Assembly (NCBI GenBank): GCA_048270045.1
Contig: JBLWTS010000003.1
Location: forward strand, 10,069 to 74,068
Reading direction: 5' to 3'
Origin: Aequorivita sp.
GTDB lineage: Bacteria; Bacteroidota; Bacteroidia; Flavobacteriales; Flavobacteriaceae
DNA length: 64,000 nt
Each line of letters opens with the position of its first letter. The first letter of the stretch is position 1. Shown here piece after piece: positions 1 to 12,226 of the stretch. The notes beneath the pieces were generated by a model. It worked only from the letters and a program-made list of their open reading frames with translations. It had not been told where the DNA came from and ran no database searches. The position numbers were made by a program, and so were the translations under genes.

Positions 1-2077
1 TTTCCCAGGAGGTGGCATTCTTATCATCTTCGTCTGCATCCTTATACATAAAGACCAATTGCGGTAATCCTAAGTGTTCATTATCTTCTTCCTCTTTTGG
101 AGCTTTTTCTTTCTTCTTTTCCTTATCTGCAATTTTCACCCAAAACAATTGTTCAAAATTTTTTCCCGGAGCGGTCAGCGTTGCCTTCATTTGTACCGCA
201 TCTCCTACCTCCAAATCTTCCTTCGGGTTTAGGCTTATTTTTATAGTTCCCTTGTTGGGGCTGCTTTTTACAATATTAAATACATCAGTTGGCTCTTTAG
301 GTTCTCCTGGTTTATCACCGCCGCCTTTCTCATTATTTTTTATGTTGAGTATGGATATTTGCAATTCACCGGGGTCATCCAATCGGTCAAAATAATCATT
401 CTCAACATCCGTAGAAAATTTAATAGTCTTTTCGCCACCCAAAGGTATTTTGGCTACTTCATTTTCACCATTATTTCTTGCATCTATTTTAAAATGAGAA
501 GGGTATCTTTCAGGCTGAAAGGGAATTTCCTCTTTCTGTTTTTTAGCTGGTTTTTTATCTCCTTGCTTCTTCTCATTTTTCTTAATGTCCAATTTAAAGG
601 TTTGACTTAACAACTTCATTAAATCGGAATCTAAAGGAAGGTCTTTAGTAAAGCTCTTTAAAAGTTCTCCTGTATTGGCTGAGGTATCAATATTAACAGC
701 TTGTTTTCTATGTTTCTCTATTTCAGCGAGTCTCCCATCGCTTTTACTCAATTGATTAGCCAAATATTTCCTAAGGTATTGAGTTTCTTCCCCCTCTTTC
801 AATCTATCACGTGAAGCCATAAAAAGCTCTTTTCTAAAGTCATAATTCATTTCCGTACAATCAACGTGAATTAGTAAATGGCTTTTTAATAAGTTGAATT
901 TTAAGGAACGTGAAATAAATTCTGAAGTATAATGTCCATGTACTTGACCGTTCAAGGTAAATAGGACAGACATAGAGTTTTTAAAATATCTTCTTTGGAT
1001 ATTTTCCTTTGTTTTTTTTAAGTCATTATCTTTAACTTTGGTTTTAAAAACAAAACAGGAAACTTTCATTTCTCCTATTGTCTCATCGTTATAAGTTTCG
1101 GAAAATCGATCAGCTAAATAATCCGACTCTTCACTACTTAATCTTCTTTTTAATCCATATAAATCTTGGGTAAGTACTTTATTGTTTGGATATCGTTCTT
1201 CAGTATCCTTTGTTAATATAGGCAAAGCGGGATTAAAAAGAAATTCATTAATGCTTTGATTAAGATCTTGTGCAAATCCTGAATAACCTTTGGGGAATTG
1301 ATAAGAATACATTTTAATAATTGTTCCGGTCGTGAATTTTCTCCCTTCCAGGCCAATATCTAATTGATCAATAGGAAAAGAAGCTATTTTCCCCTCGATT
1401 AATAAATATTCATACCAAGTCTCTTTAGCGTGGTCAGATTCTCTTTTAGGATGCTCCCGGATAAGGGTAAAACCGAAATCTCCATCACTCGAATATCTCT
1501 TGGAAGCTATTAGTTGGTATCTTTTTTTACCACAGAATACAATTGCACCACTACCGCCCATATTATATTTTCCCTGCACAAACTGAACGTCATTTTTATT
1601 GCCTCTTAAAAGAGATAAAAAAGTACTTTCAAAATCTTCGGGATGTTGTCCCTCTCCATTATCATAAACGATAACCGAAGTTGGCTGTTGGCTCCTTGGA
1701 GTTCTAGGCCCTTTGCCATCTGCAATGATCTGAATTTCCTCAGCCTGACTTTTTCTAAATTGTTGTAAATCCCAATTATGATCCGGAAAAAAAGTATCAA
1801 TGGCTTCTTCCATTGATTGCGGAGCATTCTCACCTTTTGGGTCTATACCTGCTTGATAGCATTTTTTTGTCAACAATGCATCAATGGAATTAGTAACCTT
1901 TTCTATAAGTGCCGCAATGGGATTAGATTGTTGATTTTTAACTACTCCATAATTACTTTTGTTATTTCCTAACGGTTTCCAATTATGATCCGCGAAAATG
2001 GACGGATATTTATCAAGTATAGCACCTAAGTCCTCTTCATCCTTTGCATTGAAGAGATCAAAAAAAAGTTTTTGCAT
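1..2077 (-). CDS. GHKL (HATPase_c-type) ATP-binding protein, partial; C-terminus runs off the window
   Basis: Not in the ORF track because there is no stop inside the window. I translated the minus strand codon by codon from ATG at 2077 down to about position 360 with no stop, and read the last ~360 nt to position 1 less rigorously, also seeing no stop: MQKLFFDLFNAKDEEDLGAILDKYPSIFADHNWKPLGNN... Bergerat-fold motifs are present: IEKVTNSIDA (N box), VYDNGEGQ (DxGxG, G1), GKYNMGGSGA (G2). The + strand ORFs 12..395 and 359..610 and the - strand ORF 1606..1833 are out-of-frame or antisense shadows. Confidence 0.8.
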   Translation of the reverse strand, partial: MQKLFFDLFNAKDEEDLGAILDKYPSIFADHNWKPLGNNKSNYGVVKNQQSNPIAALIEKVTNSIDALLTKKCYQAGIDPKGENAPQSMEEAIDTFFPDHNWDLQQFRKSQAEEIQIIADGKGPRTPRSQQPTSVIVYDNGEGQHPEDFESTFLSLLRGNKNDVQFVQGKYNMGGSGAIVFCGKKRYQLIASKRYSSDGDFGFTLIREHPKRESDHAKETWYEYLLIEGKIASFPIDQLDIGLEGRKFTTGTIIKMYSYQFPKGYSGFAQDLNQSINEFLFNPALPILTKDTEERYPNNKVLTQDLYGLKRRLSSEESDYLADRFSETYNDETIGEMKVSCFVFKTKVKDNDLKKTKENIQRRYFKNSMSVLFTLNGQVHGHYTSEFISRSLKFNLLKSHLLIHVDCTEMNYDFRKELFMASRDRLKEGEETQYLRKYLANQLSKSDGRLAEIEKHRKQAVNIDTSANTGELLKSFTKDLPLDSDLMKLLSQTFKLDIKKNEKKQGDKKPAKKQKEEIPFQPERYPSHFKIDARNNGENEVAKIPLGGEKTIKFSTDVENDYFDRLDDPGELQISILNIKNNEKGGGDKPGEPKEPTDVFNIVKSSPNKGTIKISLNPKEDLEVGDAVQMKATLTAPGKNFEQLFWVKIADKEKKKEKAPKEEEDNEHLGLPQLVFMYKDADEDDKNATSWE

Positions 2078-2640
2078 TGAATAATTTTTTGAGATTACTA
2101 ATATTATTTTTAAACCTTAATTAGAATACCATTCTAATATTTAAATTTCCATAAGACATAATAGAATAACAATATAAGTCACAGCATACAAAATATATTA
2201 AATTGAATTTACTCTTTGAGTAAAAACTCAATAAATACGGAGAGCTACTTTGTATATTAACTTCGACTGTTTAAGTGGGGAGATTTTAATGACATTTATA
2301 AGTGGGTTTGTAATGTATTAAATGCATTGTAAGCTAAACTAAAATAATTTTAAAGAATTAGCAAATTTATTTTAGGTGTATAATCTATTCGTGCTAATTC
2401 ACCTTTTTTATAATTATTTGTCATAGTGAAGTAGTTTCTCTAAAACTAGTATGCAGGCCTGTTTTATAGAATTTAAACTACAATCAATATCATAATCCCA
2501 GAAGATAATGTGGGGTTCTAATTTGTTATTATAAATCTTAGTGGTTTTAATGTCCCAGCCTATGCCACTAAACGATGAAGTTTAATTATTATCACTATTG
2601 CTGATTACTTGAAACACTATGCTATTACGTAATAAAATTG

Positions 2641-3060
2641 TTATTTATTTTTATCCAGAATATCTTCCAGCTCCTTTTCAGTAAGTTGAAGTTGATTAGT
2701 TAAAAGTTCAATAGCCTTTTTAATCTGGCTGCCAGATTCACTCATTATTTTATCCGCCTGCCCAAGCACCCTTAATTCATCCTCCAAATAAGCTAATTTT
2801 TTTCGTAGAATGTATGGACTTTTAGCCTCATTAACTTGAAGCTCTTTTTCCTCATCACTCATCATTGGCTCCTTTCCACACAAAAGCCAAGAAGGATTGA
2901 GTTCAGGGCATTTATTATATAGTAACTCCGCATCAAAAGAGTTCCTGCTCTTCCAGTTTGAATATACCTGTGGTGTAATTCCTAAAAACTTGGCAAAGTC
3001 TACGTCAGTTTTAAAGCTGTAGTAGTCCTTAATCTTATCTAACATTATGGCCTTATCCAT
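2641..3060 (-). CDS. HTH transcriptional regulator, phage CI-repressor/XRE-like N-terminal domain with helical C-terminus
   Basis: 139-aa ORF. The N-terminus DVDFAKFLGITPQVYSNWKSRNSFDAELLYNKCPELNPSWLLCG looks like a CI-type HTH. The gene is divergent from the sigma/Cas12f-like operon. Confidence 0.7.
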   Translation of the reverse strand: MDKAIMLDKIKDYYSFKTDVDFAKFLGITPQVYSNWKSRNSFDAELLYNKCPELNPSWLLCGKEPMMSDEEKELQVNEAKSPYILRKKLAYLEDELRVLGQADKIMSESGSQIKKAIELLTNQLQLTEKELEDILDKNK

Positions 3061-3085
3061 AACAATAAAATATTTGTGTATAAAA

Positions 3086-3117
3086 TTTGCACAATAAACA
3101 AAACGTTTATATATTTG
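3086..3117 (+). promoter_or_regulatory. Candidate Bacteroidota-type promoter for the 3183..5660 module
   Basis: TTTG at 3086-3089 and TATATTTG (matches TAnnTTTG) at 3110-3117, about 65 nt upstream of the ATG at 3183. Confidence 0.35.
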
Positions 3118-3134
3118 ATTTTCAGTATGTAAAA

Positions 3135-3155
3135 CTGTTCAATAAATGTGAACAG
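3135..3155. promoter_or_regulatory. Perfect inverted repeat CTGTTCA-N7-TGAACAG; candidate operator
   Basis: Read directly from the sequence. It sits between the candidate -7 box and the first ORF, in the divergent intergenic region shared with the CI-like repressor gene. Confidence 0.4.
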
Positions 3156-3182
3156 ATTATTTAATCTGTAAATATAGCTAAA

Positions 3183-3371
3183 ATGAAGCAAACTTATAAT
3201 GCAACCCTTGTCAAGGCGCTTGCCAAGAAGTATGAGATATCGCCGCGATATGTTAGGTACTGTCTCAAAGGAGAGCGATCCCCCTGTTTTGCAGAGAAAA
3301 TTAAAAAGGATTATACAAGATTTATAAGTAAGATAGAAAATATAATAGAAAAGGAATGTAAATCAAAATAG
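3183..3371 (+). CDS. Small (62 aa) basic protein, possible HTH
   Basis: ORF track. ALAKKYEISPRYVRYCLKG is HTH-like. The stop lies 6 nt before the sigma factor ATG, so the two are probably co-transcribed. Confidence 0.5.
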   Translation: MKQTYNATLVKALAKKYEISPRYVRYCLKGERSPCFAEKIKKDYTRFISKIENIIEKECKSK

Positions 3372-3377
3372 TGTCCC

Positions 3378-4160
3378 ATGAAACCAAGCACTTTCATACA
3401 ACTAAAAAAAGGCTGCCCAAACGCCCTTACCGCTATTTATGATGAGTACCAGAGGCGTATTTTTGGGTTGGGCAGGTACTTGCTACGCGACCACTTTGTG
3501 GTGGAATGCCTGATGCAGGACACCTTTTTAAAACTCTGGGTGCACCGCGACCGCATCGAGCGGCCTGAACACATCCTTTTCTTCCTCCTTTTCGTAATGA
3601 AAAGAGAGTGCATCTCCTATTACACCCGACCCAGAAACGACTTCAATAGAAAAATCTGCTCCCTCGATAGTTTTGATAATTATCAAAACTATATGGCGGG
3701 CTACGATCCTCTGACCGAGGCCGAAACCCTAAGGTTACAAGCCAAGGAACAACAACACTTTGAGCTCATACAAAGTGTACTGCCCCTATTAGATACCGAA
3801 GGAAAACACCTAATCGAGCTTTGCCTAAAATACGGCTTCCATTACAAGGCCATTGCTCAAGCCATGGGTAGCAGTGTTACAGACACCAGCAACAAAGTGA
3901 AAAAAGCCATTGCAGCCCTTAAGATCATTGTGGACCAAGGCGGAACGCTTAACAGCAAACAAAAGCCTGCCACCATCAAACTACAAGGTGCAATGACCCC
4001 CGAACAGGCGGAAATACTAAAACTGCGCTGTGAAAATAAATACTCCTTCGCCGACATAGCCCAAACCCTCAACCGCCCCCAAAAGGAAATCCATCGAGAA
4101 TTTATAACAGCATACAAACTCATACAACAAAAACATCACCTACAAACACAATCCGCTTAA
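3378..4160 (+). CDS. ECF-type sigma-70 family factor with an extra C-terminal sigma4-like HTH module (260 aa)
   Basis: Region-2-like DTFLKLWVHRDRIERPEHILFFLLFVMKRECISYY. Region-4-like LIELCLKYGFHYKAIAQAMGSSVTDTSNKVKKAIAALK. A second region-4-like segment follows: MTPEQAEILKLRCENKYSFADIAQTLNRPQKEIHREFITAYKLI. It is about 100 aa longer than the ordinary ECF sigma at 51876..52355. Confidence 0.85.
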   Translation: MKPSTFIQLKKGCPNALTAIYDEYQRRIFGLGRYLLRDHFVVECLMQDTFLKLWVHRDRIERPEHILFFLLFVMKRECISYYTRPRNDFNRKICSLDSFDNYQNYMAGYDPLTEAETLRLQAKEQQHFELIQSVLPLLDTEGKHLIELCLKYGFHYKAIAQAMGSSVTDTSNKVKKAIAALKIIVDQGGTLNSKQKPATIKLQGAMTPEQAEILKLRCENKYSFADIAQTLNRPQKEIHREFITAYKLIQQKHHLQTQSA

Positions 4161-4213
4161 TGTGAAAACTTTAGGACCTAAATTCGTAATTCCAAATCCG
4201 AAATACCACCAGC

Positions 4214-4340
4214 TGTGGAATTTGAAAATTGAAAATTAATAATGTAAACCCGAGGGTGCTTGTAGACACTTAAGGTGAGGCCAACCGCACTCACTAAATG
4301 CCTGGGCATATACAACGCGTGAGTACTTACTTTTTTTTAA
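4214..4340 (+). ncRNA. Candidate guide RNA copy A: conserved ~105-nt scaffold (4214-4316) plus a divergent 3' tail
   Basis: Direct repeat of 5675-5781, about 80% identical by eye. It has three hairpins (4259-4274, 4275-4294, 4298-4309). Their stems are conserved between the two copies and their loops differ. It ends in ATACAAC, followed by sequence that diverges from copy B. See findings. Confidence 0.55.
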
Positions 4341-4559
4341 ACGCTCTTTAAATTGTTTTTGTAAGCCCAAACTTTTAGCCCTCCAACCAGCGAAGCAAGA
4401 GGAAGACAATGCAAAAAGGAAAGAATAATGAACAACTGAGTTGAATAGACTCATACTATTTAAATTTTTCTAACCAACACCCAACGACTGTCACACTGAG
4501 CGCAGTCAAAGTGCATAACCAACAAACAGACATCAGACAACAGAAAACACACAACTGAA

Positions 4560-5660
4560 ATGAAAACCTCCACCCTAAAACTCACCCGAAAACTCCAGCT
4601 CATCATAGACCTGCCAGAAGGGGAGGAGCGCAACGAAGCTTTTGAAAAACTCTATCGCTGGCAGAACCGTGCTTATCGTGCGGCAAACCTGATTGTCTCC
4701 CATCACTATATTCAGGAAATGATACAGGAATTTCTATACCTCTCCGATAAAGTGCAATACAAACTAACCGACGAGATAAAGGACCCTCTGGGCATACTTA
4801 ATCGCTCCCGAAATAACACAACTTATCGTTTGGTATCAGACCGTTTCAAAGGCGAAATCCCAACCAATATCCTCTCCAACCTCAACCGTGCTCTTCTCCT
4901 ATCATTCAACAAGGAGAAGCATGGATACTGGAAAGGGGAGCGGTCGGTAAAAAACTTTAAGAGGAATATGGCCTTCCCTTTTGCCCCTGATGAATGCATC
5001 CACTGCCTGCACTACAACGAGGAAAAGAAAGCCTTTTGCTTTCGATTGTTCAAAATTCCCTTTCGAATCTATCTGGGCAGGGATTCCACCGACAAGCGAA
5101 AGCTGTTGGAAAGGGCAATAGCAGGAGAGACCAGCATCCGCACCTCCCATATTAAATTAAAAGATGGAAAAATATTTTGGCTAGCAGTCTTTCAAATAGA
5201 AAAGGAAAACCACACCCTAAGGCCAGAAGTAATTGCCGAGGCCTCCCTTTCATTGGAATTTCCTATTGTGGTAAAGGCCAATAAAACGAGGCTCACCATT
5301 GGTAGCAAAGAGGAATTCCTGCACCGAAGGCTCGCAATACAGGCAGCGCGGAAAAGAGCGCAAAGCGGTGCCACCTTTTCCCGCTCCAGCAAAGGCACCA
5401 AAAGAAAGCTAAAAGCAGTGGATAGCTTCCATGAAAAAGAGCGCAATTATGTCCACACCCGCCTCCACGTGTACAGCAGAAAGCTAATCGACTTCTGCGT
5501 AAACCAACAGGCAGGAACGCTAGTCCTTTTGAACCAAGAAGACAAAATAGGCATCGCCAAAGAAGAAGAATTCGTATTGCGAAACTGGAGCTATTATGAG
5601 TTAATGGAAAAAATAAAATACAAAGCCCAAAAAGCAGGAATAGAACTTATAGTAGATTGA
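4560..5660 (+). CDS. Cas12f/TnpB-like protein, C-terminally truncated and apparently nuclease-dead (366 aa)
   Basis: The N-terminus KLTRKLQLIIDLPEGEERNEAFEKLYRWQNRAYRAANLIV has the WED/REC-like layout of TnpB/Cas12f. The central FRLFKIPFRIYLGRDSTDKRKLLERAIAGETSIRTSHIKLKDGKIFWLAVFQIEKE resembles the Cas12f WED/RuvC junction. The C-terminus YSRKLIDFCVNQQAGTLVLLNQED...LRNWSYYELMEKIKYKAQKAGIELIVD matches the RuvC-II region and the following helix. The protein stops exactly where the TSQ/CxxC zinc ribbon and RuvC-III would begin. Confidence 0.75.
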   Translation: MKTSTLKLTRKLQLIIDLPEGEERNEAFEKLYRWQNRAYRAANLIVSHHYIQEMIQEFLYLSDKVQYKLTDEIKDPLGILNRSRNNTTYRLVSDRFKGEIPTNILSNLNRALLLSFNKEKHGYWKGERSVKNFKRNMAFPFAPDECIHCLHYNEEKKAFCFRLFKIPFRIYLGRDSTDKRKLLERAIAGETSIRTSHIKLKDGKIFWLAVFQIEKENHTLRPEVIAEASLSLEFPIVVKANKTRLTIGSKEEFLHRRLAIQAARKRAQSGATFSRSSKGTKRKLKAVDSFHEKERNYVHTRLHVYSRKLIDFCVNQQAGTLVLLNQEDKIGIAKEEEFVLRNWSYYELMEKIKYKAQKAGIELIVD

Positions 5661-5674
5661 TTTTTTGGTTTAAT

Positions 5675-5805
5675 TGTGGAATTGTTTATTGCTAATTCTT
5701 TATTGAAAATTGTAAAGAGGGTTCTTGTAAACCCACAAGGTGAGGCCTAGGCACTCACTAAATGCAAAATGCATATACAACGCGTGGGCTCTCTTACCTT
5801 ATAAA
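5675..5805 (+). ncRNA. Candidate guide RNA copy B: scaffold (5675-5781) plus a divergent 3' tail
   Basis: Second copy of the 4214-4316 element, starting 15 nt after the Cas12f-like stop codon. Hairpins at 5724-5739, 5740-5758 and 5762-5774. It ends in ATACAAC, followed by GCGTGGGCTCTCTTACC... Confidence 0.55.
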
Positions 5806-5864
5806 ACATTCCGTTCGCACAGGTCGCGGCATGTCCCCAATTCCCTTGAGTCCTGCCTCCAAAA

Positions 5865-5969
5865 GTCGTGATTCCAACCGTCGTGATTCCAACCGTCGTG
5901 ATTCCAACCGTCCTGATTCAAACCGTCCTCCCTCAAACCGTCCTGATTCCAACCGTCGGGCCCCAAACC
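5865..5969. repeat. Tandem 15-mer repeat (about 7 copies, consensus CGTCGTGATTCCAAC)
   Basis: Read directly. Same family as 13400..13676 and the degenerate copies at 63840..63990. It produces the spurious ORFs 5762..6040 (+) and 5794..5982 (-). Confidence 0.9.
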
Positions 5970-5978
5970 CTTCTTTCC

Positions 5979-6761
5979 TCAAAACACTCCCACAATCCGC
6001 ATCCCGCCACTTTTGGGAATTGCTAACATCTCAGTATTGACCTCCTTATAAAAAGTTATTCCCACCGCTACTACCAATCCAGCCTCCTGTGGCAACTGAG
6101 AAATGGGTAGCGTTATCTCCATTGTCTCCATCTCGATACCAGCTACGGTAAGGGGCAGAATTTCACCCTGCATAAACCCTCCCAAACCGATGACTTCCTT
6201 GCAAAGTGGAAGATATTTTTTATGTTTGTCATTATAGGCATAATTGCTCAAGGCAGCTACATTTATTTGCAGTGCAAAATGCGTAGCTTTCTCCGGACCG
6301 GTAATTTGGGTTTGCGGTTTTATATTGCCAACTTCCCATAGCACTCCGTTTCCGTTTTTATGGAATCGCGGCATTGCCTTTAAGCCTCCTAAACTATTTA
6401 CTAGGGGTTGGAACTTTCTAAATTCAGTTTCAATCAAGTGAGATCCATTGGTGCGCAGGTCCAATTTTCGCCCTCCTTCTGTTCCTTCTCCAAAATAAGC
6501 AATACGCCTAAGTGCCCCACTAAACCTAGCCGACACGCTGCCATCTGCCAAGGAAAGGGAATGAAGTGAAAAACTTTTCCGCAAATCGCGGGCAGCCGTA
6601 CTCCCAACTCCAAATTCAATACTCGAGAGCTTGGTGCGCTCGCTTTGTTTAATGGGGCCTTCAATTTTTTTCCTGACTCTTTGCTGTCCATTTTCATCCA
6701 TATAAAATGTCAGCTCCCCAATGTTTCCGCTTATTCCCGTTAATCCATTTACTCGTGCCAT
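5979..6761 (-). CDS. Hypothetical protein (260 aa), no recognisable domain
   Basis: Long ORF convergent with the Cas12f-like gene. I see no signal peptide and no motif I recognise. Confidence 0.6.
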   Translation of the reverse strand: MARVNGLTGISGNIGELTFYMDENGQQRVRKKIEGPIKQSERTKLSSIEFGVGSTAARDLRKSFSLHSLSLADGSVSARFSGALRRIAYFGEGTEGGRKLDLRTNGSHLIETEFRKFQPLVNSLGGLKAMPRFHKNGNGVLWEVGNIKPQTQITGPEKATHFALQINVAALSNYAYNDKHKKYLPLCKEVIGLGGFMQGEILPLTVAGIEMETMEITLPISQLPQEAGLVVAVGITFYKEVNTEMLAIPKSGGMRIVGVF

Positions 6762-6951
6762 AACTATCTAATTTATAAAGTCTTGCCGCCTTGGTCAAGA
6801 CCTTTGTTAAACTTTTATAAACTGCTTAAATAAAATATTCTAAACCATCCTTTATGGGAGTTAAAGGCCAAGTTAAGGCCACCATGCTCCATAGATGCGG
6901 CTACCTAAGTCCGGGGTAAGTCCGGGTATAATGCGGGTAAATTTTTATAAA

Positions 6952-7206
6952 TTACTTGCTACTTTGATCTTCACATTTCCCATCCGTCCAAGAAAGTAGT
7001 CCCGCCCGACCAGCGGCGCAGGGGTTCGAGTAGGTCTTTCCATCGCAACCACATACTGGTGCATATTCTAAAGTACACGGCCCATCACTTATTTTGGATG
7101 CATCGATACACGCAGTGGTGTTGGTGCTGCCACAAGAGTTGACTAATAGCAACCCGCAAATAAGAAAAATGGGAGTCCAAAAAGATAGTTTGTGCACTAC
7201 TTTCAT
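6952..7206 (-). CDS. Kazal-type serine protease inhibitor domain lipoprotein
   Basis: Start moved to the ATG at 7206 (MKVVHKLSFWTPIFLICGLLLVNSC, signal peptide plus lipobox Cys). Kazal signature CTLEYAPVCGCDGKTYSNPCAAGRAG. Confidence 0.75.
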   Translation of the reverse strand: MKVVHKLSFWTPIFLICGLLLVNSCGSTNTTACIDASKISDGPCTLEYAPVCGCDGKTYSNPCAAGRAGLLSWTDGKCEDQSSK

Positions 7207-7370
7207 TTCTTGAAATTGTACTACTAATATAAGCCCGTTTGCCTCGAATTCCAAAAATAGGGTGCAAATATATTTAAAACACTAATAATCAAATTTTTAT
7301 GTATTTATTTCTTGAATTTACTAAAGTTTTATTGTAATTCATTTTCCTTCTTTTTAAACGTTAAAAGGCT

Positions 7371-7378
7371 TAAATTTG
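7371..7378 (+). promoter_or_regulatory. TAAATTTG -7 box (TAnnTTTG) upstream of ppa
   Basis: Matches the Bacteroidota -7 consensus, 38 nt upstream of the ATG at 7416. Confidence 0.45.
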
Positions 7379-7415
7379 CACCCTCAAAAATTGGAACAAA
7401 GTAAATATCATAAAT

Positions 7416-7928
7416 ATGAGTAAGACATTCGATGTGCTAATAGAAATTCCTAAAGGCAGCCGTAACAAATATGAATACGATTTTAAACTAAAGAAAATTC
7501 GTTTCGACCGTATGCTTTTCAGCAGTATGATGTACCCGGCCGATTACGGTTTTATTCCCGAAACCTATGCCCAAGATGGCGATCCTTTGGATGTATTGGT
7601 GCTAGGCCACGAACCTACCTTCCCAATGTGCGTGATGGAAGTAAAGGCTATCGGCGTATTCCATATGGCCGATGAAAAAGGACCGGATGAAAAGATAATC
7701 TGCGTCCCTATGTCCGATCCTATCTGGAACCAGCTAAATGACCTGGAAGATCTCAACCCACACCTTATTAAGGAAATAGAACATTTCTTTAAAGTCTATA
7801 AAGACCTTGAAAAAAAACGTGTAGACGTAGGAGGCTGGGGCAACGCCGAAGAAGCCTTGGAAATCTACCGCCAATGCGTAAAACGCTACAACGAAACCCC
7901 CGAAGTACACGGACAGTTCAGTATTTAG
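7416..7928 (+). CDS. ppa: Soluble inorganic pyrophosphatase (family I)
   Basis: 170 aa. IEIPKGSRNKYEYD...YPADYGFIP...DGDPLDVLV are classic family I PPase motifs. Confidence 0.95.
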   Translation: MSKTFDVLIEIPKGSRNKYEYDFKLKKIRFDRMLFSSMMYPADYGFIPETYAQDGDPLDVLVLGHEPTFPMCVMEVKAIGVFHMADEKGPDEKIICVPMSDPIWNQLNDLEDLNPHLIKEIEHFFKVYKDLEKKRVDVGGWGNAEEALEIYRQCVKRYNETPEVHGQFSI

Positions 7929-7946
7929 AAATTAGACATAAGACTA

Positions 7947-7998
7947 AAAGACATAAGACGTAAGACTCATTTCAGTTTAAGTCTTATGTCTTTTGAAT
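7947..7998 (+). terminator. Long hairpin followed by a T-run after ppa
   Basis: AAAAGACATAAGAC (7947-7960) pairs perfectly with GTCTTATGTCTTTT (7981-7994). The stem is built from inverted copies of the AGACATAAGAC repeat. Confidence 0.6.
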
Positions 7999-8151
7999 TT
8001 ATAAAACACATCTCCAATCTCTTACAATTCAGTCTAGTCTCTAGCAGTCCCGATTTATCGGGGCGGTCCAGTCTCTCGTTTCTCGTCTCTCGTCTCCTCC
8101 ACCATTTAACATATCCTTCACTTTCCTGTTTCGTATCCCAAACCATTTCCC

Positions 8152-8159
8152 TACTTTTG
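8152..8159 (+). promoter_or_regulatory. TACTTTTG -7 box upstream of hppA
   Basis: TAnnTTTG match 41 nt upstream of the ATG at 8200. Confidence 0.45.
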
Positions 8160-8199
8160 CAGTCGCAAATTTGAAAACCAACCTTAATCTAAAATATTT

Positions 8200-10719
8200 A
8201 TGGAATCAATGATGATCTACGCGCCAATAGCAATGGCGCTATTAGGCTTAATCTTTATGGCCGTTAAACGTTCGTGGGTAATGAAACAAAACCCTGGTGA
8301 CGGTAAAATGAAAGAAATAAGCGACCACATTTATGAAGGGGCTTTGGCCTTTCTTAATGCTGAATACAGAGTGCTAGCTATTTTTGTGGTTATTGTAAGT
8401 ATAGCCTTGGCAGTGGTATCTTATATAGTTCCTACCACCCACATATTAATTGTTGTAGCGTTTATATTCGGTGCCGTTTTCTCTGCCTTGGCAGGAAATA
8501 TGGGGATGAAAATCGCAACAAAAACTAACGTTCGTACCACCCAAGCCGCTCGTACCAGCCTACCAAATGCACTAAAAGTTTCTTTTGGCGGGGGAACAGT
8601 AATGGGACTTGGTGTGGCAGGTCTTGCAGTACTTGGTTTAACTGCATTCTTTATATTCTTCTTCCATTATTTTATGGGAGGTATTTGGACCAATACAATG
8701 GATATGACCATCGTTCTTGAAACATTGGCAGGTTTCTCGCTGGGAGCCGAATCTATTGCATTGTTCGCTAGAGTAGGAGGTGGGATCTATACAAAAGCAG
8801 CCGATGTGGGTGCCGACCTTGTTGGAAAAGTAGAAGCAGGTATTCCTGAAGATGATCCACGAAACCCAGCTACTATTGCCGATAACGTTGGAGATAACGT
8901 TGGGGACGTAGCAGGTATGGGTGCCGACTTATTTGGTAGTTATGTTGCAACCGTTCTGGCAGCAATGGTTTTAGGAAATTACGTAATTAAAGATATGGGC
9001 GGAGTAATTAACGACGCATTCGGAGGTATTGGCCCAATCCTGTTGCCAATGGCAATTGCAGGTGTGGGTATCATTATTTCTATTATCGGAACCATGCTCG
9101 TAAAAATCAATAGCAACGATGCAAAAGAATCGCAAGTAATGGGGGCTTTAAATATTGGTAACTGGGTATCTATCGTTTTAGTTGCCATTTCTTGCTTTGC
9201 GCTTGTAAAATGGATGCTTCCCGAAACAATGAATATGAGCTTCTTCGGCGAAGGCCTTCAGGAAATATCTTCGATGAGAGTATTCTATGCTACCCTAGTA
9301 GGTTTGGTTGTAGGTGCGGGAATTTCATCGGTAACAGAATATTACACTGGATTGGGTAAAAAACCAATTCTTAAAATAGTTCAGCAATCGTCAACAGGGG
9401 CTGGAACAAACATTATTGCCGGTTTGGCAACAGGGATGATTTCTACTTTCCCTTCTATCTTACTTTTCGCAGGTGCTATCTGGGCATCATACGCCTTTGC
9501 AGGATTCTACGGAGTTGCCCTCGCTGCTTCTGCTATGATGGCAACTACAGCTATGCAACTTGCAATCGATGCTTTCGGACCTATTAGCGATAACGCAGGG
9601 GGTATTGCCGAAATGAGCGAGCAGGAACCAATAGTACGTGAGCGTACCGATATTCTGGATGCCGTAGGAAATACTACCGCTGCTACAGGTAAAGGATTTG
9701 CTATCGCCTCTGCTGCATTGACTTCCTTAGCTCTTTTTGCAGCTTACGTAACCTTTACAGGTATCGACGGAATCAACATCTTTAAAGCTCCTGTATTGGC
9801 GATGCTTTTTGTAGGTGGAATGGTGCCGGTAGTATTTTCAGCATTGGCAATGAACGCCGTTGGAAAAGCTGCTATGGAAATGGTAAATGAGGTGAGAAGA
9901 CAGTTCCGCGAAATTCCAGGAATTATGGAAGGAACCGGAAAACCAGAATACGACAAGTGTGTGGCTATTTCAACCCAAGCGTCTTTAAGAGAAATGGTGT
10001 TGCCAGGAGTTCTTACAATCGGTTTCCCAATAGTAATTGCTTTCGCTCCCATGCTTTTTGGAATGGATAATATGTCTATCGCCGAAATGCTTGGTGGTTA
10101 TATGGCCGGAGTTACCGTAAGTGGTGTACTTTGGGCTATTTTCCAAAACAATGCTGGTGGGGCCTGGGATAACGCAAAGAAATCCTTTGAAGCCGGAGTT
10201 CTTATCGATGGCGAAATGACATACAAAGGAAGCGAAGCCCACAAAGCCGCAGTTACGGGAGATACTGTAGGAGATCCATTTAAGGATACTTCAGGGCCTT
10301 CGATGAACATCTTGATTAAACTTACCTGTTTGATCGGACTCGTAATCGCGCCTATTCTTGGAAATCACGATGGGGTTGTGTTGGCAAATGAAACTACTTT
10401 AAATGAAACCACTACGAATGAAGTTTATATGATCGATGCAGAAGGTAATAAGGTGCCATTGACCGAAAAGCAAATTCAGTTTATCGAAACAGGTAGAGCC
10501 GTTACTCCCATTCAAAATGGAGAAGACCGCACCCAAACTTTGGTTGAAATGATTAAAAATGACAATAACGATCAAGTTAAAGCCAACGTAACCATTATAC
10601 GAACCATTAACGGGGAACAATCTACCGAAACCCTAACCTTCGCTGGTACCGAAGAAGAGGTTCGCAGCCAAATGAAGGATGTAAAGGGAATGAAAATCAA
10701 GATAAAGGATAAAGAGTAA
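8200..10719 (+). CDS. hppA: Membrane-bound ion-translocating pyrophosphatase with a ~100-aa soluble C-terminal extension
   Basis: 839 aa and multi-TM. Motifs [53 protein letters not shown]. The tail after ...LGNHDG is hydrophilic ([20 protein letters not shown]...KIKDKE). Confidence 0.95.
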
Positions 10720-10766
10720 TTCTTAATCTATGTCGCCAAATAAACAAAGGCGTTCAATAAAATTCC

Positions 10767-10806
10767 AAAACCTGCAAAATCCCACCGATTTTGCAGGTTT
10801 TTTTAT
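10767..10806 (+). terminator. Rho-independent terminator after hppA
   Basis: AAAACCTGCAAAATC / GATTTTGCAGGTTTT stem followed by a T-run. Confidence 0.8.
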
Positions 10807-10825
10807 TGGTTAAAAAAGTCGATAG

Positions 10826-10912
10826 ACTTCGACTTCAATTTCAATTTCAACCTCAACTTCAAATTCAATTTCAACTTCAATTTCAATTTCAACTTCAATT
10901 TCAACCCCAAAT
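10826..10912. repeat. Tandem repeat tract of TTCAAT/TTCAAC units (CAATTTCAACTTCAA type)
   Basis: Read directly. Same family as 27027..27087 and 36771..36818. Confidence 0.9.
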
Positions 10913-10963
10913 TAACATTTCCAAAATAATCCTACATTAAAATTTACATATCTTAGCCTGACT

Positions 10964-12226
10964 ATGGATTACAACGACCTCGTAACACTGGGAATTTCAT
11001 TTGGACTGGGCCTTCTGGTAGGGTTACAGCGTGAAAAAACCAATCATGAAACAGCGGGAGTTCGTACCTTTACCCTTATTGCAATCCTAGGAACAATCGC
11101 CGGATTCTTAACCCGCGAATACGACAATCCCTTTATACTTCCCATTTTCGGAATTGCCGTAACAGCCTTAATGATTACCGCCAATATTATAATTGCGAGA
11201 AGAGATGAAGATACTTCCGCCGGACAAACCACTGAAGTTGCCGTATTATTGATGTTTGCACTGGGTGCCTATTTGGTTTTGGGCGATCACGTAATTGGAG
11301 TAATCATAGGCGGAGCTCTTGCTATTCTACTATATATAAAAGAATCACTTCATAATTTTATCGATAAGCTTAAGGATAAAGACCTCGGTGCAATTATGAC
11401 TTTTGTTGGCATTTCATTGGTCATTCTCCCAATTCTCCCAGATGAAACCTATGGTCCATTAAACGTACTTAACCCACGCGATATATGGTTAATGGTTACG
11501 CTTATAGTCGGTATTAGCGTTCTGGGCTATTTTGTATATAAATGGGTAGGGAAGAAGGCCGGAATGATATCCAACGGCATCTTGGGAGGAATTATCAGCA
11601 GTACTGCCACCACGGTGAGTTATGCCCGGAATGCTTCGAAAAACGCCAGCATAAGTAAGGTTTCGGCATTTGTTATTATGGCTTCGGTCACGGTTTCAAT
11701 TATTCGCGTAATTATTGAGATTGGAATAGTCGTACCCGAAAAGCTTCCTGCCTTAATAACCCCCTTTGCCATTCTATTTTTATTTATGGCTGTTCTATCT
11801 GTAATTCTTTTCTATACGGTGTCGAAAGATAAATCGGTTGAAGACATGCCAGAACCAAAGAATCCTGCGCAGTTTAAGAGTGCGTTTGTTTTTGGATTGT
11901 TGTACGGACTTATTCTCTTGGCTGTAGCATTTACAGAAAGGGAATTTGGAAACGAAGGACTTTACATCGTTTCTATCATTGGAGGATTGGCAAAAAAAGA
12001 TGCCATTACTTTATCATTGGCACATTCCATAAGTGGAGGATTGGCAACCGAATTGGGCTGGCGACTCATAATGACAGGAGTGCTAGCTAATTTTGCATTT
12101 AAAATCGTTTTGGTAGCTGTGTTGGGGAATAAAAAACTTGTAACTTGGGTAGGTGGCGCAATGTTTCTTTCAATCGTCGCTGGCTTATTACTGATGTGGC
12201 TTTGGCCTGAAGGATGGCATTTTTAA
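10964..12226 (+). CDS. MgtC/SapB-family plus DUF4010 integral membrane protein
   Basis: 420 aa, polytopic. The N-terminus LGLLVGLQREKTNHETAGVRTFTLIAILG is typical of the MgtC family. Confidence 0.7.
   Translation: MDYNDLVTLGISFGLGLLVGLQREKTNHETAGVRTFTLIAILGTIAGFLTREYDNPFILPIFGIAVTALMITANIIIARRDEDTSAGQTTEVAVLLMFALGAYLVLGDHVIGVIIGGALAILLYIKESLHNFIDKLKDKDLGAIMTFVGISLVILPILPDETYGPLNVLNPRDIWLMVTLIVGISVLGYFVYKWVGKKAGMISNGILGGIISSTATTVSYARNASKNASISKVSAFVIMASVTVSIIRVIIEIGIVVPEKLPALITPFAILFLFMAVLSVILFYTVSKDKSVEDMPEPKNPAQFKSAFVFGLLYGLILLAVAFTEREFGNEGLYIVSIIGGLAKKDAITLSLAHSISGGLATELGWRLIMTGVLANFAFKIVLVAVLGNKKLVTWVGGAMFLSIVAGLLLMWLWPEGWHF

Follow-up and report, generated by a model that had tools for sequence, protein, structure and literature searches.

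The window analyzed here, a 64-kb stretch (64,000 nt) of Aequorivita sp. DNA, encodes a nuclease-dead Cas12f (dCas12f), a sigma factor (RpoE) of the extracytoplasmic function (ECF) type, and two guide RNAs (gRNAs). Judged from its sequence, the locus is very probably orthologous to the known dCas12f-sigmaE system for RNA-guided transcription. The rpoE-dcas12f operons of Bacteroidota were described by Hoffmann et al. (bioRxiv 2025, Nature 2026; PMC12259090, PMC13472631), and cryo-EM structures of the Flagellimonas taeanensis (Fta) system (9N9C, 9N9M, 9N9O, 9N9P, 9N9Q) by Xiao et al. (PMC12259091). In the published loci the operon is accompanied by a divergent hth gene, and a single gRNA of 85-105 nt, encoded next to or immediately downstream of dcas12f, carries a guide of 14-16 nt at its 3' end (PMC13472631). 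The target-adjacent motif is 5'-G, sigmaE and RNA polymerase are recruited in a guide-dependent manner, and transcription starts 46 bp downstream of the motif with no promoter motifs; native targets are mostly upstream of susCD operons, with susCD followed by a peptidase gene in Fta (PMC13472631). This mechanism was shown experimentally and structurally for F. taeanensis (PMC13472631, PMC12259091). A first-pass annotation of the window had proposed that a nuclease-dead Cas12f-like effector and guide RNAs deliver a dedicated sigma factor and RNA polymerase to sites lacking a promoter motif, a reading supported by the homology to the F. taeanensis system. Its novelty is not upheld, because the reports of dead Cas12f and ECF sigma factors in Bacteroidota to which the annotation alluded are real (Hoffmann et al., Xiao et al.) and describe exactly such a system, already published in full mechanistic detail. 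Relatives of the window type are almost certainly within the set of about 700-870 dCas12f proteins that Hoffmann et al. drew from the NCBI non-redundant (NR) protein database (PMC13472631).

All five elements listed in that annotation were confirmed in place, and the coordinates of its three open reading frames (ORFs; 62, 260, and 366 aa), all on the plus strand, are exact. The identities of the genes and RNAs, the inactivation of the nuclease, the conservation of the interface residues, and the strict linkage of sigma factor and dCas12f are shown by the sequence comparisons. The features of the locus are as follows.

2641-3060, minus strand: hth, divergent gene for a 139-aa helix-turn-helix (HTH) repressor of the CI type (Pfam Phage_CI_repr, E=1.4e-5; PHROG repressor families).
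3087-3117, plus strand: predicted Bacteroidetes-type promoter of the ORF62-rpoE operon, with TTG at 3087-3089, a 20-nt spacer, and TATATTTG at 3110-3117 (motif scan).
3135-3169, no strand assigned: two overlapping inverted repeats, candidate operator of the HTH repressor (read from the sequence; arms conserved).
3183-3371, plus strand: ORF62, conserved 62-aa three-helix protein, possibly DNA-binding (coding-type substitutions, homologues, AlphaFold2).
3378-4160, plus strand: rpoE, dCas12f-associated ECF sigma factor of 260 aa with sigma2, sigma4, and an extra C-terminal domain (PDB 9N9Q chain C).
4242-4330, plus strand: gRNA copy 1, scaffold at about 4242-4316 and 14-nt guide GCGTGAGTACTTAC at 4317-4330, then T8 at 4331-4338 (covariance model).
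4560-5660, plus strand: dcas12f, nuclease-dead Cas12f of 366 aa (full-length match to PDB 9N9C).
5707-5795, plus strand: gRNA copy 2, scaffold at about 5707-5781 and 14-nt guide GCGTGGGCTCTCTT at 5782-5795 (covariance model).

When searched against the PDB with phmmer, the 366-aa protein matched 9N9C, "Nuclease-deactivated Cas12f," over residues 3-365 (to 3-364; E=2.1e-167, 68.5% identity). Further matches under the same name were 9N9M, 9N9O, and 9N9Q, and the structures of active Cas12f and TnpB ranked lower (E=5e-43 and weaker). The NCBIfam guided_TnpB model also matched (E=2e-15), and with the PDB matches this bears out the Cas12f/TnpB architecture that had been read from the sequence. An alignment with the active Cas12f 9NZO puts Ser229 in place of the RuvC-I Asp (motif GVDLG) and Asn325 in place of the RuvC-II Glu, and about 90 C-terminal residues of 9NZO have no counterpart. 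The last 20 residues of dCas12f correspond to positions 1-20 of the 60-position Cas12f TNB (zinc-ribbon) profile of Pfam. As the protein ends there, the zinc ribbon and RuvC-III are missing, and the first-pass annotation was correct in placing the stop codon ahead of them. Of the residues named in the structure paper, Y89, R90, S106, and Y344/Y345 are conserved with respect to Fta, as is the lid motif, identical at 21 of 22 positions. Against its closest relative, from A. viscosa (L001), dCas12f has 94% identity as protein and 89% as DNA, consistent with purifying selection and with an origin in the Flavobacteriaceae. A search of viral contigs for dCas12f relatives found none. One member of the 90%-identity cluster of the protein is publicly labelled "IS605 OrfB family transposase" and close relatives "hypothetical protein," annotations of these relatives that can now be corrected.

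Like the type V-F Cas12f nucleases (PDB 9NZO, 9NZR, 8HR5, 7L48), the window protein has a REC/WED/RuvC core (residues 84-363, E=5e-43 to 1e-6) and, by homology, would be an RNA-guided DNA binder acting as a dimer. Those nucleases, however, are of 415-540 aa with an intact Asp/Glu/Asp RuvC and a zinc ribbon, and they cleave DNA using CRISPR RNA and trans-activating CRISPR RNA from CRISPR arrays; the window protein has none of these. An active type V-F CRISPR-Cas12f was rejected on the basis of Ser229 and Asn325 at the first two catalytic residues, the missing C-terminus, and the lack of an array. An IS200/IS605 TnpB transposon was also rejected, with RuvC dead and no transposase among the ORFs of positions 1-12000, the range over which ORFs, CRISPR arrays, and transposases were read. 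Within that range the repeats are short-period tandem repeats alone, with no CRISPR array, and neither TnpA nor transposon ends were found, so the earlier statement that transposase and array are absent nearby holds. Like TldR (Wiegand et al. 2024, PMC10705468), the window encodes a nuclease-dead protein of the TnpB family with a fixed guide beside the gene and a likely role in regulating host genes. TldR, in contrast, derives directly from TnpB and represses by blocking promoters without a dedicated sigma factor, whereas the window protein falls on the Cas12f branch, and the sigma factor linked to it carries a docking domain.

In the PDB, the full-length counterpart of the sigma factor is chain C of 9N9Q, RpoE (residues 4-260 aligned to 4-261; E=1.4e-85, 51.8% identity). 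Pfam places Sigma70_r2 at residues 20-84 and a region-4-like HTH at 205-241. The latter lies in the extra C-terminal domain, which is indicated by the NCBIfam ECF models reaching only residues 16-182 of the 260 and which comprises about 60 residues (about 200-260, nt 3975-4157) plus a linker. The product is thus an oversized ECF sigma factor, as had been claimed from its length, but the excess is about 75 residues and not about 100. All eight interface residues named in the structure paper, whose part in the sigma-dCas12f contact is known from mutagenesis or structure, are conserved in the alignment with the Fta protein. Four are in the sigma4 domain (L137, I184, H144, and Y152, Fta numbering) and four in the C-terminal domain (R218, F225, H240, and F243).

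The linkage of the two genes was surveyed in related loci. A sigma factor gene is directly upstream of dcas12f in all 22 examined: the 11 genome loci, which are all the dCas12f loci found in contigs taken at one genome per species, L132, and the 10 further loci L137-L146. The 11 genome loci are from Aequorivita, Galbibacter, Leeuwenhoekiella, Flagellimonas, Maribacter, and Sphingobacterium. In the window rpoE is likewise upstream of dcas12f on the same strand, in a predicted operon.

One gRNA copy is in the spacer between rpoE and dcas12f; the other begins about 47 nt past the dcas12f stop codon. The two align through a conserved core to an identical ...GCATATACAACGCGTG junction and then diverge. 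Copies resembling them were gathered from nine of the 11 genome loci, and an alignment of 17, including both from the window, was used to build a covariance model (R1). The model scored 84.1 bits at 4241-4332 (copy 1) and 104.4 bits at 5706-5797 (copy 2), detected no other copy in the window, and also matched copies in loci outside the training set (L132, L010, L011, and L137-L145). The two structured elements recognized earlier are therefore real repeats by both alignment and model. Their boundaries, given as 4214-4316 and 5675-5781, did not hold at the 5' side: the RNAs start at about 4242 and 5707, leaving the first 28 nt or so outside. The upstream segments (4214-4241 and 5675-5706) are probably leader or promoter. 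The ends were placed by homology with the 89-nt Fta gRNA, with the 5' end within a few nt. The element of the Flagellimonas loci begins about 3 nt past the end of dcas12f; taking the 14 nt that follow ACAAC as the guide gives it 89 nt, which is also the reported size of the Fta gRNA. The scaffold consensus, GAGGGTGCTTGTAcACCCgtAAGGTGAGGyc...GCACTCACTAAATGC...GCATATACAAC, is highly conserved and folds into three helices with RNAalifold. An Rfam scan gave no family for the gRNAs or for anything else in the window. Two divergent copies (36-46 bits) are upstream of rpoE in Sphingobacterium (L010 1312-1637, L011 4545-4790), so the position of the gRNA gene relative to the operon varies across the family.

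The guide of copy 2, GCGTGGGCTCTCTT, is identical in L003, L005, L006, L007, L009, and L132, which represent Flagellimonas, Maribacter, and Aequorivita. An "inflexible guide" targeting a conserved susCD site has been described (Xiao et al., PMC12259091), and the identity of guide 2 across genera would fit one. The guide of copy 1, GCGTGAGTACTTAC, was not seen in any other examined locus. It keeps the family seed GCGTG and has a GTACT core in common with the spacer-located guides of L004 and L137 (Galbibacter and Leeuwenhoekiella). We considered whether the copy 1 scaffold groups with the spacer gRNAs of other genera and rejected this, as it is 75-83% identical to all copies alike and the weak affinity is in the guide alone. 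The base before the guide is C, never G, in every gRNA copy; given the 5'-G requirement, the gRNA gene itself would be spared. In the minimum-free-energy fold of copy 2, the scaffold's 5' end (AAGAGGGUUC) is base-paired to positions 5-14 of the guide (GGGCUCUCUU). For Fta, a stem (P5) that sequesters the guide and has to be unwound is reported (PMC12259091). The pairing in the window differs from P5, and its conservation in L005 is not apparent.

Upstream of the operon the window encodes a divergent HTH protein that the first-pass annotation did not mention. It corresponds to the hth gene that runs in the opposite direction in the published loci and is kept at the same position and orientation in L001, L004, and L008 (85-97% aa identity). 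The spacer between hth and ORF62 is 122 nt. Bacteroidetes sigmaA promoters have the consensus TTG-N17-23-TAnnTTTG. In eight related intergenic regions the TTG and the TATATTTG box are invariant. Two inverted repeats are between the predicted promoter and the ORF62 start, CTGTTC-N9-GAACAG at 3135-3155 and ACAGATTA-TT-TAATCTGT at 3152-3169. Their arms are conserved across the eight loci and the 9-nt loop is variable. We infer a conventional promoter for the operon and, at 3135-3169, an operator of the CI-type repressor. This would be in line with the Fta locus, where inverted-repeat binding sites through which the HTH protein autoregulates are close to hth (PMC13472631).

The small ORF between promoter and rpoE had been annotated as an HTH gene. 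That it is a real coding gene is supported by its substitutions relative to L004 and L008, which are mostly synonymous and at third positions, including AGG>CGT and CTC>TTG. It has 16 homologues at 66-100% identity, and AlphaFold2 predicts a three-helix bundle (pLDDT 88.5). Its HTH nature is weakly supported: the PHROG match has E=0.03, the fold search gave no match with E below 0.9 and only a weak resemblance to LacI-type HTHs, and neither Pfam nor NCBIfam matched. We also considered that ORF62 might be the published noncoding RNA (ncRNA) rather than a gene, a possibility rejected by the overwhelmingly synonymous substitutions and the confident predicted fold. A guide search of 3061-3377 found no guide-like sequence. 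In Flagellimonas, the hth-rpoE spacers of four loci split into two unrelated upstream arrangements.

The hth and ORF62 genes are not confined to loci with dcas12f. A nearly identical hth/ORF62 promoter and repeats head rpoE-dcas12f in the window, L001, L004, L008, L132, and L137-L146. In two metagenomic contigs, L133 (5459-11362) and L135 (5459-10700), the same arrangement of hth on the minus and ORF62 on the plus strand, together with this promoter and these repeats, is found immediately before susC-susD-peptidase S9 operons and not before rpoE-dcas12f. This parallels the published distribution, in which hth and its ncRNA are at both rpoE-dcas12f loci and susCD target loci (PMC13472631), and suggests where the targets of this lineage are: the operons in L133 and L135 are probably its target class. 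That the published layer of hth plus ncRNA is represented here by a portable two-gene cassette of CI-type hth and ORF62 with one divergent promoter and operator is a tentative proposal, which we hold to be doubtful. Just before the susC start codon, both contigs have a conserved block of about 85 nt (about 6840-6925 in L133, about 6225-6310 in L135). It reads GACCCGCTCC...ACGACCGTG.GAGCAGG.CC, forming an imperfect hairpin, then GAATGTATAA..ATGCAAAATTATGAA. The block has no match in Rfam and could be a leader element of those operons.

Compared with the Fta system, the window shares a truncated, RuvC-dead Cas12f (366 aa, 365 in Fta), an ECF sigma factor with the extra C-terminal domain (260 aa, 261 in Fta; 52% identical with the named interface residues kept), rpoE directly upstream of dcas12f, a divergent hth, and a single gRNA of about 89 nt with a 14-nt 3' guide downstream of dcas12f. 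Both are without a CRISPR array and without an anti-sigma gene; in the window, no neighbour matched a FecR-type anti-sigma factor (ORF list, Pfam, NCBIfam). Unlike the Flagellimonas loci, where hth is of the XRE type, the window has a CI-type hth (139 aa). The hth-rpoE gap, which in Fta contains an abundant ncRNA, is taken up by the gene for a conserved 62-aa protein; a further gRNA, whose guide is different, is encoded between rpoE and dcas12f; and gRNA copy 2 is about 47 nt after the stop codon rather than about 3 nt. The residues at the target-adjacent motif also differ, as detailed below. The loci of the Leeuwenhoekiella/Galbibacter type (L004, L008, and L137-L146) share with the window the gene order of CI-type hth, ORF62, rpoE, and dcas12f, the placing of gRNAs in the rpoE-dcas12f spacer, and a nearly identical hth/ORF62 promoter-operator. 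They differ from the window in having two or three spacer gRNAs with guides starting GGCGTGGG, and those of the L137 type have no gRNA downstream of dcas12f. L. palythoae was tested by RNA immunoprecipitation sequencing, and tandem gRNAs were seen (PMC13472631).

Several observations weigh against assigning the window to the published system. We searched the window for targets of both guides, at up to three mismatches and then at 9 or more of 14 positions with a seed filter, and found none for either; the best matches, 11 of 14, are at chance level and fall inside coding regions, and the full matches are the gRNA genes themselves. The flanks of 23 related loci, searched with their own guides, had nothing at 12 of 14 or better outside gRNA genes. 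The genomic matches to the guide nucleotides that the first-pass annotation had suggested looking for were thus sought in the window and in the flanks of related loci, and only the gRNA genes matched. No guide match was found in the L133 and L135 contigs, whose own guides are not known. A metagenome scan with G plus guide 1 (GGCGTGAGTACTTAC) gave at least 120 matches, of all GC contents and in unrelated contexts; none of those listed had a homologue of a locus protein or similarity to the window, and they are chance 15-mer matches in a very large collection. At the protein level, dCas12f has M85N, H110R, and Q144E with respect to Fta, in residues that contact the DNA beside the target, so the adjacent-motif requirement may not be exactly 5'-G. 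Covariation gives thin support to the RNA structure, with a compensatory change in only one of 18 pairs, because the gRNA sequences are too alike. Also, no counterpart was identified in the window for the published "hth-associated ncRNA," the 5' end of which resembles the guide seed; the protein-coding ORF62 occupies its position.

The remaining points of this kind concern gRNA copy 1. Its first helix contains two broken pairs, one of them from a unique C>A change, and its folding energy is not in excess (z=+0.79; copy 2, -2.69). It is also the lowest-scoring of the clade's full-length copies (84 vs 104 bits), and its position is empty in the closest relatives, L001 (A. viscosa) and L132, which with the private guide could mean that only copy 2 is functional. 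Copy 1 (4242-4330) would then be a decaying duplicate that is no longer loaded onto dCas12f or has no target, with the T8 acting mainly as a partial terminator between rpoE and dcas12f. Yet copy 1 retains all 41 invariant scaffold positions and ends in a clean T8, and its guide keeps the family-wide GCGTG seed and the GTACT core of the L004 and L137 spacer guides. Further, gRNAs at this position are the rule in the sister clades: L004, L008, and L137-L145 have two or three, and in L137-L145 these are the only gRNAs detected. We consider decay of copy 1 unlikely on balance but a possibility of some weight. The dead Cas12f might instead block promoters under RNA guidance, as a repressor of the kind of TldR or of the dCas12f clade without sigma, with the sigma factor acting independently on ordinary promoters. 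Repressive nuclease-dead relatives of TnpB and Cas12 are known (PMC10705468), and the ancestral sigma-less clade is predicted to repress efflux genes (PMC13472631). However, the sigma factor bears an extra C-terminal domain that is nearly confined to dCas12f-linked sigma factors, its dCas12f-contacting residues are all conserved, the linkage has no exception in the loci surveyed, and the closely related Fta system activates transcription and requires its sigma factor (PMC13472631). Repression by this protein is accordingly very improbable. The transposase label in the 90%-identity cluster, the "hypothetical protein" labels of close relatives, and the dead nuclease would also suit an inactive relic, in which the remnant of a dead IS200/IS605-type TnpB and a leftover resembling an omega RNA are beside a sigma factor gene by chance. 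The ORF is nevertheless intact and full-length with protein identity above DNA identity, gene order is kept in at least six genera, guide and scaffold are conserved, and there is neither TnpA nor transposon ends. This explanation is already disfavoured, and we regard it as having next to no likelihood.

The neighbours of the locus in the window, beyond hth and ORF62, include a family-less 260-aa protein, a Kazal-domain protein, and pyrophosphatases; no tRNA gene is near. The family-less protein (5979-6761, minus strand) has no match in Pfam, NCBIfam, or PHROG. Homologues are at the same position in A. viscosa (L001; 38% identity) and in L003 (24%). The small Kazal-domain protein (6952-7254, minus strand) has a probable signal or lipoprotein N-terminus and adjoins the pyrophosphatase genes, and a 12-nt-period tandem repeat of TTCAAT/TTCAAC units follows the membrane pyrophosphatase gene (10828-10923). 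Another tandem array, at 5850-5958, begins 55 nt after gRNA copy 2 and has about 6-7 copies of the 15-nt unit GTCGTGATTCCAACC; it is not CRISPR-like. Short-unit repeats also fill the rpoE-dcas12f spacer of L004, and repeats of about 55 nt are upstream of susC in L133. On the left side, a large ORF (2-2116, minus strand) runs off the window start; it comprises at least 705 aa, matches HATPase_c_3 weakly, and leaves a 520-nt gap to hth. The same side has a DNA methylase in L132 and L001, HEF_HK, Response_reg_2, and DUF2357/PDDEXK_7 genes in L132, and a large protein of at least 852 aa in L001. None of these left-side genes is homologous to that at 2-2116 of the window. This context looks like a defence island.

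A tyrosine integrase gene is next to hth in nine of the 10 Leeuwenhoekiella-type loci; no integrase was found in the window. In L137-L143 and L146 the integrase adjoining hth is of 374 aa, and the right flanks differ among contigs. L137 has an IS110 transposase further upstream and L142 a transposase fragment of the IS110 family. The locus of Flagellimonas crocea (L005 891-4421) follows two tRNA genes and, from a reading of ORF translations, apparent mobilisation genes, and restriction-modification genes come after it. Integrative elements may carry the cassette from place to place.

By analogy with Fta, a dCas12f dimer would bind a single gRNA of about 89 nt, with a scaffold of about 75 nt and a 14-nt guide at the 3' end. 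The complex would find a guide-complementary genomic site beside a minimal 5'-G motif and form an R-loop. The ordered lid motif and truncated RuvC would then dock two domains of the co-encoded sigma factor, sigma4 and the extra C-terminal one, and the sigma factor would bring RNA polymerase to start about 46 bp downstream without a -35/-10 promoter. For the operon itself, ORF62-rpoE-(gRNA1)-dcas12f-gRNA2, transcription is predicted to start from a conventional Bacteroidetes promoter (3087-3117), which the divergently encoded CI-type HTH protein probably represses via the inverted repeats (3135-3169). The most likely role of guide 2, the widely conserved one, is to activate a susC-susD-peptidase operon at another place in the genome, and guide 1, being lineage-specific, would add a second target.

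The RNA-guided start of transcription through a dead Cas12f with a dedicated sigma factor is important as a mechanism: it is nature's counterpart of CRISPR activation and does not depend on promoters. As it was published in 2025-2026 with genetics, biochemistry, and cryo-EM, the window adds only another orthologue, and its local features (ORF62, the spacer gRNA with a private guide, and the CI-type hth) are variations on a known theme. The locus shows that gRNAs can be encoded between rpoE and dcas12f, and it combines a pan-genus guide with a second, private one. That ORF62 travels with the HTH gene at both activator and susCD-peptidase loci bears on how both the HTH protein and the RNA associated with it feed into the system. 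If the proposed cassette is real, a single repressor would control the RNA-guided activator as well as the operon that is its likely target, and ORF62 would be a new protein component, for example a co-regulator or anti-activator, undescribed in the published work.

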